A DNA stretch of 64,000 bases, from positions 1-64,000 of the forward strand of contig CAVSHF010000004.1 of assembly GCA_963727805.1 (NCBI GenBank), given 5' to 3'. The position numbers were made by a program, and so were the translations under genes. Positions 19,594-29,882 of this stretch are shown piece after piece. This stretch comes from an uncultured Nitrospiraceae bacterium. Its GTDB lineage: Bacteria > Nitrospirota > Thermodesulfovibrionia > Thermodesulfovibrionales > Dissulfurispiraceae. The first letter of the stretch is position 1. Every line of letters begins with the position of its first letter. Below the pieces are notes generated by a model. It was not told the origin of the DNA. It searched no databases and saw only the letters and a list, made by a program, of their open reading frames with translations.

Positions 19594-20020
19594 GGCATTG
19601 TCCTATCATACTAAACATATTTATGCAGGCCTGCAATAATTCGCAGTTTCCTTTATCTTCAGTTCATGCCGTTATCATTACTTTGTCTATAAGACGCCTG
19701 TGCAAGCAAAAGGTTACAATGCCGGATATACACTCGCGAGCAATCCGGGACACCTCCCATATGCAAAGTTTCTTCATTGGCCATGTCTGCTGCCCTCATC
19801 AACAGCACAAACAATATCTACGTACAACCTTAACTCGTTCGCAAATGGTGCTGTGATAGACATATGAGACGAACCCTGCCGCTGTGTTTTGACGACTACT
19901 GTATATTGCCAGAAATAATCATTGCGACTGCGGGATCTTTTAAAAAAATGATTATACGTAGTAGACGAGAATCTGGTTCTGATAACTACCGAAAGCCTTT
20001 GCAGAGTGCCCCGCGGCTTG

Positions 20021-21703
20021 CAGGCTGTCCGACAATTATCGAAATTAGAGACAAATGACGGATGCCTCGCCATCCTGAAAACATAACGGGGCTATCTGCT
20101 TTATACATAGTATCTCCAGCAAAAGCTTCCTTGGCGTATGGCAGTAGTTGCCCTCTTTCGGAGGCTTTCCTCTTCCCTTCAGGCATTCCCATATCTTTTT
20201 CAGATTTACTGCCGTACAGGCAAGGTTAAATTCCGACCTTACCGAATTAATTCCTCTCGTCAGAAATGTTCGCAATCCTTTGTTCTCCTTGATATCGCCG
20301 ATCACAGGTTCAACAATCTGTTGTCTAAGCTTATATATATATCTTGCTGCAGGCGTTTTCATTTTTTCAGTCATCGCATTGCAGTGAACTTCGTGAGGGA
20401 ACACCTTCAGAGAGCGTATGCCGTCCTTCTGTTTGGTACACAGTCGCTGATGCTCACATCCCAAGCATCTCTGACCACGATAGACTCTCACCATCTTGTC
20501 CCTCTGTCTGTCAAAATGTTCGCCCAAGAATGTTAGCGGGTGATCAGCAGGACAAATATACTCATCCCTTTGTTTATTGTATGTAAAGTTCTTCTTGTCG
20601 TATGGGTTGTTTGCCCGCGTCCCACTATTGTCAGGCATGTATGCATCTATCTTCCTGTCCGATAGAAATGCAATGTTCTCACCGCTAAAATATCCAGAAT
20701 CAAAACTCCAAATAATACTATCAGCAATTCCGCCAAGATTCTCTGTGGTTTGTATAACCTGAGGTTGCAACTGGCTGACATCTGCAGCATTCTGCCCCAC
20801 GTCACTAGCCAAAATGAACCCACCCTTATCCACTGTCACCTGAGGATTATAAGAAAGCTCTATCCTGCCTTTCTTATTTTTCATAAAACGACTATCAGGA
20901 TCTGTCGTGCTTACCTGCTTTAGCCCTTCCTCATTAACTTTGTCTTGAGCTCCTTGAAGACCTTCTCTGAGTCGACCTATAAAAACATGCCCTTCTTCTT
21001 TAGCCCTCTTAACATAGTACTGTGCAGCTTTCTGAACAAGTTTTTTGCCCTGCCGGGACAGTTGGTCGCTACCCCGTAGTTCACCGAACTGCCGATCCTC
21101 ACTCTCATCAATCTCTGCCCACTCCTGAAGCTCACCATCGACAAAGCTTCTCAGAACCGCCAACTCCTCTTTTGTTAATACTCGCCTGTTTGATGCATTT
21201 GCCTTCACTTTGGTTCCATCTGTCGACAGATGCGACAAATCCAACAATCCTTCCTCTTTGGCAAAACTAACTGTGTGCTTGAAGACTTCCTTTAGTAGAT
21301 CAGGGTTGTTCTTTCTGAAATCGCTGATAGTCCTGAAGTCAGGAGTCAGCTTCTCCGCCAAATATATATACACCACGTTCTCTCTGGCATTGCGTGCCAG
21401 TCGACGAGATGAGCGCACCCTGTCCAGAACTCCCATGATCAGCAACTTCACCAGCATTTTTGGATGATATGCCGGATGTCCGGCACCTGAATAGCGGATA
21501 TCGAAGCAACCATAATCCAGGGAGTCAACCAATCCTTCAATGAGAAAACAAATATGATCTTCGGGTATCATATCTTCTAAACTCGGCGGCAGTAGCCAGG
21601 ATTGCCCTCCATACGACTCAATGTATGCCATCGGGTGTACTCCTTGATATCGTTCTTAAATATATTCTACCACCGGATAACTTGATAATTGTCGGACAGC
21701 CTG
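20021..21703 (-). mobile_element. IS1182-family element copy A (1683 bp)
   Basis: 20-bp perfect TIR CAGGCTGTCCGACAATTATC. CTTG duplication at 20017-20020 and 21704-21707. Confidence 0.95.
20045..21631 (-). CDS. IS1182 family DDE transposase
   Basis: GHPAYHP, SSRRL, PDFRTISDFRK, DGTKVKANAS, TDPDSRFM, DSGY and VEPVIGDIK motifs. Confidence 0.95.
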   Translation of the reverse strand: MAYIESYGGQSWLLPPSLEDMIPEDHICFLIEGLVDSLDYGCFDIRYSGAGHPAYHPKMLVKLLIMGVLDRVRSSRRLARNARENVVYIYLAEKLTPDFRTISDFRKNNPDLLKEVFKHTVSFAKEEGLLDLSHLSTDGTKVKANASNRRVLTKEELAVLRSFVDGELQEWAEIDESEDRQFGELRGSDQLSRQGKKLVQKAAQYYVKRAKEEGHVFIGRLREGLQGAQDKVNEEGLKQVSTTDPDSRFMKNKKGRIELSYNPQVTVDKGGFILASDVGQNAADVSQLQPQVIQTTENLGGIADSIIWSFDSGYFSGENIAFLSDRKIDAYMPDNSGTRANNPYDKKNFTYNKQRDEYICPADHPLTFLGEHFDRQRDKMVRVYRGQRCLGCEHQRLCTKQKDGIRSLKVFPHEVHCNAMTEKMKTPAARYIYKLRQQIVEPVIGDIKENKGLRTFLTRGINSVRSEFNLACTAVNLKKIWECLKGRGKPPKEGNYCHTPRKLLLEILCIKQIAPLCFQDGEASVICL

Positions 21704-21808
21704 CTTGCCGCGTGGGATGAATGCATGCCTTGCCTAGAGGGTTATAAGGGAGACAGGGAGTCTCCCTTATCCGCTAAGGCCCTTGCGTAGTGTGGTATAA
21801 CATATGGT

Positions 21809-22237
21809 ATGGCACTCAAAAGGGCGAGTCATGTGGTCTACGACACGACATACCACCTGGTATGGTGTCCGAAACGACGCAAGACAATATTTCAGGATGC
21901 TGAACTTAGGCAACGAGCGGAACAGCTCTTTCGTGAAATCAGCGACGAGTATGAATTTGAGATACAGGAGATGGAAGTCGGAGTAGACCACGTTCATATA
22001 CTGATGTCGTTTCATCCGAAGTATTCAATTGGGCAAGTTGTTAGGGCACTGAAAAGTATAAGCGCAAGGGAGCTGTTTCGTGAGTTCCCTCGAATCAAGC
22101 AACGATTGTGGAGCGGGCAGTTGTGGGAGGATAGATATTTCGCCCGAACTGTCGGAGACCGTATGACTCGGCAAATTGTCGAAAAGTATATAAGGCATCA
22201 TCGTCAAGATGAGCAAGGGCCTGCGCAGCTCTTTTGA
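21809..22237 (+). CDS. tnpA: IS200/IS605 Y1 HUH transposase
   Basis: YHLVWCPK, DHVH (HUH), KSISAR, LW..YF.RTVG and catalytic Tyr in EKYI. Confidence 0.95.
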   Translation: MALKRASHVVYDTTYHLVWCPKRRKTIFQDAELRQRAEQLFREISDEYEFEIQEMEVGVDHVHILMSFHPKYSIGQVVRALKSISARELFREFPRIKQRLWSGQLWEDRYFARTVGDRMTRQIVEKYIRHHRQDEQGPAQLF

Positions 22238-22264
22238 GCTGCGCTCAAGATGCCCCGCGGCTTG

Positions 22265-23947
22265 CAGGCTGTCCGACAATTATCAAGTTATCCGGTGGTA
22301 GAATATATTTAAGAACGATATCAAGGAGTACACCCGATGGCATACATTGAGTCGTATGGAGGGCAATCCTGGCTACTGCCGCCGAGTTTAGAAGATATGA
22401 TACCCGAAGATCATATTTGTTTTCTCATTGAAGGATTGGTTGACTCCCTGGATTATGGTTGCTTCGATATCCGCTATTCAGGTGCCGGACATCCGGCATA
22501 TCATCCAAAAATGCTGGTGAAGTTGCTGATCATGGGAGTTCTGGACAGGGTGCGCTCATCTCGTCGACTGGCACGCAATGCCAGAGAGAACGTGGTGTAT
22601 ATATATTTGGCGGAGAAGCTGACTCCTGACTTCAGGACTATCAGCGATTTCAGAAAGAACAACCCTGATCTACTAAAGGAAGTCTTCAAGCACACAGTTA
22701 GTTTTGCCAAAGAGGAAGGATTGTTGGATTTGTCGCATCTGTCGACAGATGGAACCAAAGTGAAGGCAAATGCATCAAACAGGCGAGTATTAACAAAAGA
22801 GGAGTTGGCGGTTCTGAGAAGCTTTGTCGATGGTGAGCTTCAGGAGTGGGCAGAGATTGATGAGAGTGAGGATCGGCAGTTCGGTGAACTACGGGGTAGC
22901 GACCAACTGTCCCGGCAGGGCAAAAAACTTGTTCAGAAAGCTGCACAGTACTATGTTAAGAGGGCTAAAGAAGAAGGGCATGTTTTTATAGGTCGACTCA
23001 GAGAAGGTCTTCAAGGAGCTCAAGACAAAGTTAATGAGGAAGGGCTAAAGCAGGTAAGCACGACAGATCCTGATAGTCGTTTTATGAAAAATAAGAAAGG
23101 CAGGATAGAGCTTTCTTATAATCCTCAGGTGACAGTGGATAAGGGTGGGTTCATTTTGGCTAGTGACGTGGGGCAGAATGCTGCAGATGTCAGCCAGTTG
23201 CAACCTCAGGTTATACAAACCACAGAGAATCTTGGCGGAATTGCTGATAGTATTATTTGGAGTTTTGATTCTGGATATTTTAGCGGTGAGAACATTGCAT
23301 TTCTATCGGACAGGAAGATAGATGCATACATGCCTGACAATAGTGGGACGCGGGCAAACAACCCATACGACAAGAAGAACTTTACATACAATAAACAAAG
23401 GGATGAGTATATTTGTCCTGCTGATCACCCGCTAACATTCTTGGGCGAACATTTTGACAGACAGAGGGACAAGATGGTGAGAGTCTATCGTGGTCAGAGA
23501 TGCTTGGGATGTGAGCATCAGCGACTGTGTACCAAACAGAAGGACGGCATACGCTCTCTGAAGGTGTTCCCTCACGAAGTTCACTGCAATGCGATGACTG
23601 AAAAAATGAAAACGCCTGCAGCAAGATATATATATAAGCTTAGACAACAGATTGTTGAACCTGTGATCGGCGATATCAAGGAGAACAAAGGATTGCGAAC
23701 ATTTCTGACGAGAGGAATTAATTCGGTAAGGTCGGAATTTAACCTTGCCTGTACGGCAGTAAATCTGAAAAAGATATGGGAATGCCTGAAGGGAAGAGGA
23801 AAGCCTCCGAAAGAGGGCAACTACTGCCATACGCCAAGGAAGCTTTTGCTGGAGATACTATGTATAAAGCAGATAGCCCCGTTATGTTTTCAGGATGGCG
23901 AGGCATCCGTCATTTGTCTCTAATTTCGATAATTGTCGGACAGCCTG
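22265..23947 (+). mobile_element. IS1182-family element copy B (1683 bp, inverted relative to A)
   Basis: Same TIR. CTTG duplication at 22261-22264 and 23948-23951. Encoded protein identical to copy A. Confidence 0.95.
22337..23923 (+). CDS. IS1182 family DDE transposase
   Basis: Identical translation to 20045..21631. Confidence 0.95.
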   Translation: MAYIESYGGQSWLLPPSLEDMIPEDHICFLIEGLVDSLDYGCFDIRYSGAGHPAYHPKMLVKLLIMGVLDRVRSSRRLARNARENVVYIYLAEKLTPDFRTISDFRKNNPDLLKEVFKHTVSFAKEEGLLDLSHLSTDGTKVKANASNRRVLTKEELAVLRSFVDGELQEWAEIDESEDRQFGELRGSDQLSRQGKKLVQKAAQYYVKRAKEEGHVFIGRLREGLQGAQDKVNEEGLKQVSTTDPDSRFMKNKKGRIELSYNPQVTVDKGGFILASDVGQNAADVSQLQPQVIQTTENLGGIADSIIWSFDSGYFSGENIAFLSDRKIDAYMPDNSGTRANNPYDKKNFTYNKQRDEYICPADHPLTFLGEHFDRQRDKMVRVYRGQRCLGCEHQRLCTKQKDGIRSLKVFPHEVHCNAMTEKMKTPAARYIYKLRQQIVEPVIGDIKENKGLRTFLTRGINSVRSEFNLACTAVNLKKIWECLKGRGKPPKEGNYCHTPRKLLLEILCIKQIAPLCFQDGEASVICL

Positions 23948-24257
23948 CTTGCCGCGTGGGAGTGTCACTTTCTGGATTCAATCTTTTGGTAAGATGCCCG
24001 AAGTATTTAGTATCCGGTGACTCGAGAACCGACCACTGAGCGTTTATCTTTTTAGGCACACTCTTAATTCCGACTAACAACTGCACCGACGGACAAACAC
24101 CGATGGCCATGTCCGCCAGTTCCTACACTGCTATCAGATAGTAACCTCTATGTTTGCAGCAGATTTAGGAGTATACTTGATGCAGCTATAAATAGTGCAA
24201 TGGGAAGGAAGAGATTAACGTCGTATAATTCAGATTGTCCTTTTAAAGGAGGTTTGT

Positions 24258-28177: not shown

Positions 28178-29638
28178 AATGTATTCGGTTAGACTGTGGA
28201 GGTGTTTGATAATTATTGAGAGCGACCTCCGTTGGATGTGATAATTGTATTGCATTCAAAAACTGGAAGGAGGCCGCTATGACATTTTACTGTGGAATCG
28301 ATTTGCATACCAAGAAATCCCAACTCTGTATTATTGACAAGGACGGGAAAAAGGTAAAGGAGGGTAATCTCAACAATGATCTTTCGGTCATTTTTGAATT
28401 TCTAGAACCCTTCGGTAGGGATGTACATATTGCGATTGAATGCACCATAAATTGGTATTGGATTGTGGATGGACTTAAGGACAAGGGCTATGACGTAAGG
28501 CTTGCACATACATTGGGTCTGTACATGATAACAGGGGCGAAGGTAAAGACTGACAGAAGAGACGCATTTAAGTTGGCAAAACTTCTCAGGATGGGTGAAC
28601 TCCCGGAGGCGTATATTTATCCCAAGGAGAAAAGACCATTGAGAGACCTCTTAAGGAGAAGGGCAGGCCTTGTTCATGAGCGTGCCGAATGCTATTCGAG
28701 CTTGAGGGTACAGTTCATAAAGTATAACCTGAACACCATGAGCGGTAGCGAGTTGAAGAAGCTCTTACCTGCAGATCTTCATATTATGCCGATCCCTCAG
28801 CAAGTGAAGGATTACTGCGTCATGATACTGGAGAGAATCGACCTGCTATCCAACCAGATTGACAAGCTCGATACTGGGTTAAAAGACATCACGTTAGAAG
28901 ATCCCAGATTCAAGCTTCTGTTAACGTTGCCCGGCGTAATGTACGTGCTTGGATTGACGATCTATTACGAGATAGGAGACATCAGCAGATTCAGAGATGT
29001 CAGGCAGTTTGCATCCTATTGTCGTTTGGTGCCGGGTGTATCTCAGTCCTCCGACACAGTAAAGAGAGGGAAGGGAAAGAAGCAGGGGAATCATTATTTG
29101 AAGTTTGCATTTACCCAAGCCGCCAATATTGCGGTCAGGTATTATCCGAAGCTCAGAAAGTTCAGGGACAAACATGCCAACAGAAGGAAGGGCAGTGCGG
29201 CTACGATGGTGGCCAACTGCATTCTGGCTCACAAAATAGCCAACGCTACGTTTCATATGTTGAAGGAAGGGGTCCCTTTTGACGAGGCAAAGCTTTTCGG
29301 CTGATGGGTGGCGGTAATACCCGCCTGATAAGTGGGCTCATAAGCCCGAGTGTTTGATTGGTAGCCGCCATCTGTCTTTAAAAAAATGGAGGTGTTTTGA
29401 CATTGTCTGCCCTGGCCGGTAGCTCCACGATAACTGATGCTGCCCTGTGCAGACATCGACTGCATTTGCTGAATGAGGCTGGTCAGGAACCGATAACTTT
29501 CTGGTGCCGCAGAGCAAGCTTCATTGCCCTGCAAGGGAGTAATCCCACAGAGCCCGTATGGATGTTTGATGCAGATAATGGTTCTGCATCGTTTTCAGAA
29601 AGACGAGACAGATTATTCATGTCAAAGGACTTCTAATG
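28178..29638 (+). mobile_element. IS110-family element #3 (ends approximate)
   Basis: Transposase plus about 330 nt of structured 3' non-coding region. AATG present at both presumed ends. Confidence 0.6.
28279..29304 (+). CDS. IS110 family transposase
   Basis: YCGIDLH, IECT, KTDRRDA, TLPGV, SYCRLVP..QSS and KQGNHYLK motifs. AGGAGG SD. Confidence 0.95.
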   Translation: MTFYCGIDLHTKKSQLCIIDKDGKKVKEGNLNNDLSVIFEFLEPFGRDVHIAIECTINWYWIVDGLKDKGYDVRLAHTLGLYMITGAKVKTDRRDAFKLAKLLRMGELPEAYIYPKEKRPLRDLLRRRAGLVHERAECYSSLRVQFIKYNLNTMSGSELKKLLPADLHIMPIPQQVKDYCVMILERIDLLSNQIDKLDTGLKDITLEDPRFKLLLTLPGVMYVLGLTIYYEIGDISRFRDVRQFASYCRLVPGVSQSSDTVKRGKGKKQGNHYLKFAFTQAANIAVRYYPKLRKFRDKHANRRKGSAATMVANCILAHKIANATFHMLKEGVPFDEAKLFG

Positions 29639-29882
29639 ATATACGGTCTTAGGAATAAAAGACTGTCGGCATACTTTTTTCTCTTGACACGGTCGCTCTC
29701 AATGGAGGTTTTCAGGTGTTATTGGGACCTCCAATATATGCCCTTGTGCTAAACGCAGAGGACACATATTATGGGGAGAGATCCAACTTTTTGACAATGC
29801 GGTTTGTGTGCTACTCCTCATGGCTCATTTCAGCTTTGCTTTTTCATTTGAATAGACCCGTCGTCTTTATTCCCCTGTTATA

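Follow-up and report, generated by a model that had tools for sequence, protein, structure and literature searches.

The twice-split IS200 element

The DNA analysed here is a 64-kb stretch (the window, to which the coordinates below refer) of contig CAVSHF010000004.1 from an uncultured Nitrospiraceae bacterium, labelled G000 in our genome comparisons. It carries an IS200-type insertion sequence (IS) whose end hairpins are both split by copies of an IS1182-family element, one copy in each loop. We propose that the lineage to which this IS1182 element belongs recognizes the end hairpins of IS200/IS605 elements. The locus comprises the following features (ORF, open reading frame):

19986..19989, +: CTAC, IS200 target and left cleavage site, retained as flank; it precedes all four copies of this left end, and TTAC stands at three variant ends with a different guide
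19990..23968, +: IS200 element, 605 bp when empty, without target duplication; its ends are common to the other copies and agree with the empty-site contig of run X1
20005..20008, +: AGTG, predicted left guide of IS200, from covariation with the cleavage site
20009..20020, +: 5' arm of the left-end hairpin and loop CTTG (first duplicate)
20021..21703, -: first copy of the IS1182-family element (1683 bp; terminal inverted repeats, 20 bp; transposase ORF, 20045-21631)
21704..21716, +: loop CTTG (second duplicate) and 3' arm of the left-end hairpin
21809..22237, +: tnpA, encoding a 142-amino-acid Y1 HUH transposase, frame intact; DHVH at residue 60 and a catalytic-type Tyr near residue 127
22249..22252, +: GATG, predicted right guide of IS200, which would fit TCAC under IS608-type pairing
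22253..22264, +: 5' arm of the right-end hairpin and loop CTTG (first duplicate)
22265..23947, +: second copy of the IS1182-family element, likewise 1683 bp; its transposase ORF, 22337-23923, has D138, D311, and E441 and Y433-R436-E441-K448
23948..23960, +: loop CTTG (second duplicate) and 3' arm of the right-end hairpin
23965..23968, +: TCAC, the terminal bases of IS200 and its right cleavage site, common to all six right ends in the genome

When both insertions are taken out, 605 bp of IS200 remain. CTTG flanks each IS1182 copy, and the hairpin that is split in the window is found unbroken at C5:421250 and C5:32237 (contig and position) of the same genome. These observations bear out a preliminary description, made from the letters of the window, according to which both hairpins of a single 605-bp IS200 are split at the same position by a 1683-bp IS1182 element. 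The two copies (20021-21703 and 22265-23947) are exact reverse complements and encode one and the same 528-amino-acid protein, as that description had also stated. It had left two lengths for the target duplication: the 4-bp CTTG stands, whereas the 6-bp GCTTGC fails where the loop is closed differently (loci L043 and L033). A 2-bp duplication was considered as well and rejected, as it fails at L408/L010.

The IS1182 transposase matched the NCBIfam model NF033551 with 408 bits (cut-off, 270) and also matched DUF772 and DDE_Tnp_1_6. The element has the organization of the IS1182 family, with a single ORF between 20-bp terminal inverted repeats, a length of 1683 bp, and a 4-bp duplication. Residues D138, D311, E441, Y433, R436, and K448 are invariant in all 39 aligned IS1182 homologues; the D138/D311/E441 triad and the YREK-type residues are putatively catalytic, judging from IS4-type motifs. 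A search for a solved structure matching this transposase found none. The closest named plasmid proteins are those of the IS1182 members ISPse1, ISPa7, and ISPpu20, which are only 31 to 33.5% identical; ISPse1 is described as 1653 bp long with a 4-bp duplication in the accessible part of PMC3281130.

ORF 21809-22237 encodes an IS200 TnpA (Pfam Y1_Tnp PF01797, 136.5 bits) that scores 146 bits with NF033573 versus 45.8 bits with the model for transposases associated with repetitive extragenic palindromes (REPs). The gene is identical in two other copies in the genome, and its 142-amino-acid reading frame is complete, in agreement with the earlier statement that the insertions leave tnpA intact. 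Natural empty ends, when folded, give subterminal imperfect hairpins at both ends without terminal inverted repeats, and the empty-site contig shows no duplication, as is typical of IS200/IS605 elements. The four bases that precede the hairpin vary together with the cleavage site: AGTG accompanies CTAC in four ends and AATG accompanies TTAC in three, and GATG goes with TCAC. In IS608, the guide tetranucleotide pairs with the cleavage site (PMC5934647, accessible part); we carried the positional rule of the IS608 pairs over to the window IS200, and its guides are predicted on that basis.

The locus is represented by short-read contigs only. Run X1, possibly the source of the assembly, is not independent of it, and runs X2 to X4 cover parts of the stretch only. 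In X1, the depth was 22.7 for the IS1182 element versus 4.4 for unique flank, and each junction type was present. No X1 contig bridges any junction with 31 letters on both sides, which leaves room for a repeat-induced misassembly of the double hit. Such an error is nevertheless very unlikely, considering that the orientation of the right-end junction is unique among the assembled copies of this IS200 and exactly matches a 39-nt X1 contig. In addition, both outer flanks are unique and are joined in the empty-site contig, where a variant left flank runs into the right flank at 23968 without the element. Three other double hits also exist elsewhere, at L108 around tnpA and at L096 and L314 around a 208-bp interior. 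The idea that surviving double hits are always inverted was discarded, as L314 is direct.

Occupied sites in the genome and in the lineage

Seven full IS1182 copies are present in G000, six of them identical and one with a single change, and all seven lie in the loops of IS200-type hairpins, in both orientations. They occupy both ends of the window IS200, the left end of a second IS200 copy, the right end of a third, and the right ends of two short IS200-type elements that lack genes and have the loop CTAG (here the orientations are opposite); the seventh copy is chimeric, with a left outer arm on one side and a right outer arm on the other (C5:245273). The flanks of all copies were collected as the preliminary description had advised, and none in this genome is at an unrelated site. 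The strict targeting of IS200/IS605 hairpins by a DDE transposon that it proposed holds here and is also seen across the lineage. Five hairpins of the targeted kind are empty. The genome contains 4590 perfect stems of at least 5 bp around a 4-base spacer and 128 CC-N6-CWWG-N6-GG sites, and since all seven copies lie in such loops, chance placement is excluded against this background. A lone 20-base near-match to the terminal repeat at C3:689671 has neither a hairpin nor an element body.

Relatives with the same targeting were identified in Nitrospirota, Woesearchaeota, Thermoplasmatota, and Methanosarcinaceae, at the ends of tnpA, tnpB, and HEARO elements; 66 loci came from a scan of genome contigs and 25 from a terminal-repeat scan of metagenomes. 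In G027, of the same genus and 86 to 88% identical, the four copies with a readable end all adjoin the same hairpin type, and a degenerate hairpin pattern gave two sites. A 69% identical copy in G020 has no matching duplication and only one C-rich flank. The terminal-repeat pattern occurs in 76 of the 177 genomes of the family of G075, in 6 of 64 in another class, and in 23 of 401 genomes of the phylum of G000, itself included, with 2 control matches, so that single matches may be due to chance. A miniature of ~118 bp is common. A quick tree of 62 proteins places the 39 rows of the lineage without exception within one group of 42 (SH-like approximate likelihood ratio test, 99), which also holds, in an open fork, three rows with another end type; only when the tree is rooted at its midpoint are the bacterial members nested among archaeal ones.

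Outside G000, 261 distinct half-sites were collected, which are not independent, as they come largely from a few related genomes, G251 and G270 supplying many. C is found at position -11 in 227 and at -12 in 222, and the CC pair stands 11 to 12 bases from the cut in 210 of them; an outgroup with a different terminal repeat has C at neither position (0/23 at each). Among 93 paired sites, to which the same dependence applies, the duplication is 4 bp in 75, 5 bp in 3, 3 bp in 2, and absent in 13. The 78 sites with a 4- or 5-bp duplication fold around it with at least five pairs in 68 cases (shuffled, 51.4 +- 2.8), and in 47 the base just before the duplication pairs with the one just after it (shuffled, 8.3 +- 2.5; maximum, 15). 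For the best stem, the register agrees with the length of the duplication in 59 of the 75 four-base cases and in all three five-base cases, and all three 5-bp duplications (L031, L099, and L262) lie in 5-base loops.

One could imagine that insertion is loose and that only the copies at harmless sites, such as IS ends, persist, insertions into selfish DNA being cheap for the host. This reading is effectively refuted, as base-exact placement in a 4-base loop by seven of seven near-identical recent copies and a fixed CC spacing in so large a share of the half-sites are beyond what selection could produce.

Several loci identify the targets as ends of IS200/IS605 elements, including those that carry nucleases of the OMEGA type (obligate mobile element-guided activity). 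tnpA lies beside L026, L046, L071, and L108 (that of L026 was found by tblastn and had escaped the Pfam scan, which covered the two longest ORFs of each flank), tnpB lies beside L035 and L093, and short TnpA-like tails were seen, in translation only, at L045 and L048. In G204, tnpB elements are the target of four of the six copies, which lie in the left-end loop, two per orientation; these target elements have diverged by 17 to 106 nt per 600, and the insertions therefore represent independent hits. HEARO matches within 20 loci start at the insertion point in five of six cases, and Rfam searches of 20 mostly bacterial loci returned only tRNAs and a riboswitch. In G251, tnpA, tnpB, or HEARO is found no more than 200 bp from 13 of the 46 sites (random mean, 2.1; maximum, 7 in 300), and 42 of 78 flanks resemble the empty ends beside tnpA, tnpB, or HEARO genes (nulls, 4/150 and 4/101). 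This 4.1-Mb genome holds 146 HEARO and 55 TnpB zinc-finger matches; G204 has 0 HEARO matches. We had taken many Methanosarcinaceae targets for solo hairpins, a view that was abandoned when family F2 and the G204 family proved to be left ends of tnpB elements.

Proposed recognition of the end hairpins

Site choice in this lineage is exact to the base, takes place in both orientations and through independent hits, keeps a fixed CC spacing, and duplicates the loop. The explanation that we favor, at a probability of roughly 0.58, is that the lineage finds IS200 end hairpins by the CC/GG at the stem foot together with hairpin geometry, the cuts being made at the edges of the loop and probably in cruciform DNA. 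The transposase would read the CC/GG pair, extruded cruciform DNA being the probable substrate, and a transposase dimer would join each element end at a loop edge, one per strand. Gap repair would then copy the loop, giving 4 bp, or 5 bp from a 5-base loop. An IS200/IS605 element can be hit twice because two such hairpins lie a few hundred bases apart.

As the main alternative, sequence alone may be read on ordinary duplex DNA, as a palindromic consensus (CC, N6, a pyrimidine-W-W-purine centre, N6, GG) to which IS200/IS605 hairpins happen to be the best and commonest matches. We consider this possible, though clearly less probable. A weight matrix was built from 92 half-sites of other genomes, with close look-alikes removed, and scanned on the emptied 3.9-Mb genome; it picked 24 positions scoring at least as high as the lowest true site, and all seven occupied sites are among them. 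In 12 of these 24, the stem has 7 or all 8 of the 8 possible pairs. A consensus would also account for L049, which fits it without a hairpin, for a close-relative motif found 12 times, mostly at these hairpins, and for the outgroup having its own T/A preference at the same positions. Furthermore, two left ends with GCGC arms are empty, and both right ends of the same short elements are occupied. However, all three five-base loops gave a 5-bp duplication although a 4-bp cut would satisfy the consensus. One transposase also uses different inner stems (the proteins of L029 and L031 are identical, as are those of L030 and L037), and the ~10 high-scoring non-hairpin sites in G000 are all empty (7/7 in 14/24; p ~0.01). 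The matrix also brought out two further empty hairpins of the IS605-end type, at C3:403420 and C3:1070439, with loops TTTG and TGAG.

Another candidate is recruitment, in which the IS1182 transpososome is drawn to hairpins that are bound by TnpA or single stranded at the replication fork. The targets are indeed structures that TnpA binds (PMC5934647, accessible part), and intact tnpA genes are present in G000, G251, and G204. We regard recruitment as improbable, as the two orientations are about equally frequent, solo and degenerate hairpins without a nearby IS200/IS605 gene are occupied too, and duplication of the loop requires attack on both strands.

Several points weigh against recognition of IS200/IS605 hairpins by foot and geometry. 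The 5-bp duplication class consists of three sites only, 10 of the 78 sites have fewer than five enclosing pairs, and some insertions show little or no hairpin (L048, 1/8; L049, 4/8; and L251). Stem complementarity is, moreover, expected at IS200 ends whichever feature the enzyme reads. In G000, structure is not isolated as a determinant, because the other 12 matrix positions have weak stems and sequence alone nearly predicts the sites. With respect to the nature of the targets, 30 of the 78 G251 flanks are unclassified, only 5 of 107 flanking ORFs match IS200/IS605 families, most flanks being without such a gene, and hairpins of the same shape that are solo or REP-like make up many of the bacterial targets.

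Fate of the host element and known relatives

Under the geometric reading, the interior of the host element may be deleted through direct double hits, by recombination, or through attack on a neighbouring hairpin; a single invader would then remain, bordered by one left and one right outer arm. For the inverted pair of the window, simple recombination could only invert the centre and not collapse it. In family F3 (16 sites), the element's own inner arm is lost in all 10 readable of 11 occupied ends versus none of five empty ones (Fisher p 3e-4, which is overstated, as the five empties are identical copies from one genome). Eight of the occupied ends run into the outer arm of the other end and two into unrelated hairpins. 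The genes on either side of the chimeric copy C5:245273 are neighbours in at least five relatives of the genus, and the host interior of this copy was therefore lost in place. Together with the arm loss in F3, this suggests that the invader deletes the host interior. Collapse is not general, though: family F2 keeps the inner arm in all six occupied sites, the direct double hit L314 is uncollapsed, and an empty left/right chimera, L090, exists. This last (G027:C1:481291-481314) is an empty, ~60-bp solo hairpin in which a left outer arm is joined to a right outer arm, with both cleavage tetranucleotides. At C5:401460-401492 in G000, a left outer arm of the same IS200 as in the window ends abruptly within the loop, with neither an IS1182 nor an inner arm, possibly as a scar of deletion or excision.

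The insertions may immobilize the IS200, as the preliminary description proposed. When folded, occupied ends retain the hairpin stem, lengthened by the IS1182 inverted repeats. Positions 19985-22265 of the window (2281 bp) are 100% identical to a single-hit copy on C5, which is compatible with independent hits as well as with movement of the occupied IS200. The preliminary description saw a composite, invertible unit in the IS1182-tnpA-IS1182 arrangement. The inverted repeats of the IS1182 copies would allow the centre between them to invert, and it is in the ancestral orientation. As for a composite transposon, each IS1182 has its own duplication, the whole unit is present once, and no second copy was found in the genome.

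More speculatively, the cross-domain lineage may be a dedicated hyperparasite of IS200/IS605 and OMEGA elements. It would measure the distance from cruciform foot to loop, hit both ends, cut HEARO RNAs at their first stem, strip the tnpA/tnpB cargo, and leave solo hairpins that seed REP-like palindromes; we hold this view tentatively. The lineage is a clean natural example of one transposon living off the recognition signals of another, directed at the family that carries TnpB and IscB, and it likely wears down rival IS200/IS605 elements by landing on their recognition sites. If hits disable or delete host elements, OMEGA nucleases would be subject to a brake that has gone unrecognised, and solo palindromes could arise by this route. 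Through the loop-length rule, the cruciform targeting that has long been suggested for IS1182 elements can be tested directly on a short, defined target, and a small transposase using about two dozen sites per genome or fewer could become a site-specific integrase.

Other mobile elements also use the recognition site of another element or a REP palindrome. IS4321 and IS5075 reportedly target the terminal repeats of Tn21, and IS1397 and IS621 are said to target REP palindromes. Unlike the lineage described here, they use other enzymes (IS110/IS1111 and IS3) and other hosts, and none is known to be aimed at the ends of HUH/OMEGA elements. Among the IS1182 elements, the palindrome-targeting subgroups of Siguier et al., which PMC4923244 and PMC5678879 cite, reportedly contain some elements whose duplication is confined to the loop of a stem-loop. 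In the accessible part of PMC5678879, loop-only duplication via a cruciform is drawn as a hypothetical pathway (Fig 13c), and detailed data are said not to have been given for these subgroups.

IS1272/TnSha1 of staphylococci belongs to the same family and likewise inserts into hairpin-forming inverted repeats in either orientation, with one site repeatedly hit independently (PMC4923244 and PMC5678879, accessible parts). According to the same sources, IS1272 removes part of the hairpin, makes no duplication, follows no sequence consensus, and uses terminators as targets. In the present lineage, by contrast, the stem is kept, the loop is duplicated (in 7/7 sites here and 78/93 paired sites elsewhere), the CC/GG consensus is fixed, and IS200/IS605 ends are the target. 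Nearly all copies of ISCbo5/ISbma2-like IS1182 elements also lie in hairpins, but theirs are at gene ends and were read as terminators, not as transposon ends (PMC3098183, accessible part). The literature searched did not name IS200/IS605 ends as a target of IS1182 elements; outside it lie ISfinder, TnCentral, and the Siguier reviews, which may note such a target, and the accessible parts of PMC6006769, PMC13343696, and PMC3281130 were found to make no mention of it. IS1182 members in terminator hairpins are known, and the lineage described here is a real variant aimed at IS200/IS605 ends in two domains; what is new is the double hit, together with the rule on loop length and the indications that host elements collapse.

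Some further nested and neighbouring elements were seen. Outgroup IS1182 members at L062, L064, L067, and L074 lie in palindromes of different types; for some of these members the outward flanks of the two ends are identical and a duplication is absent. At L331 (G251:C1:2241679), a 118-bp miniature is apparently inserted beside or inside another miniature in the same loop. At L010/L408 (G027:C2:1396126-1398888), the IS1182 in an IS200 left end is itself split by a further, presumably IS21-like, element, making three nested elements. In the window, positions 28201-29710 hold an IS110-family element with three more near-identical copies in the genome, and positions 1-2900 consist of adjacent multi-copy segments (1-1634 and 1625-2895), the second of which exactly matches the start of contig C5.

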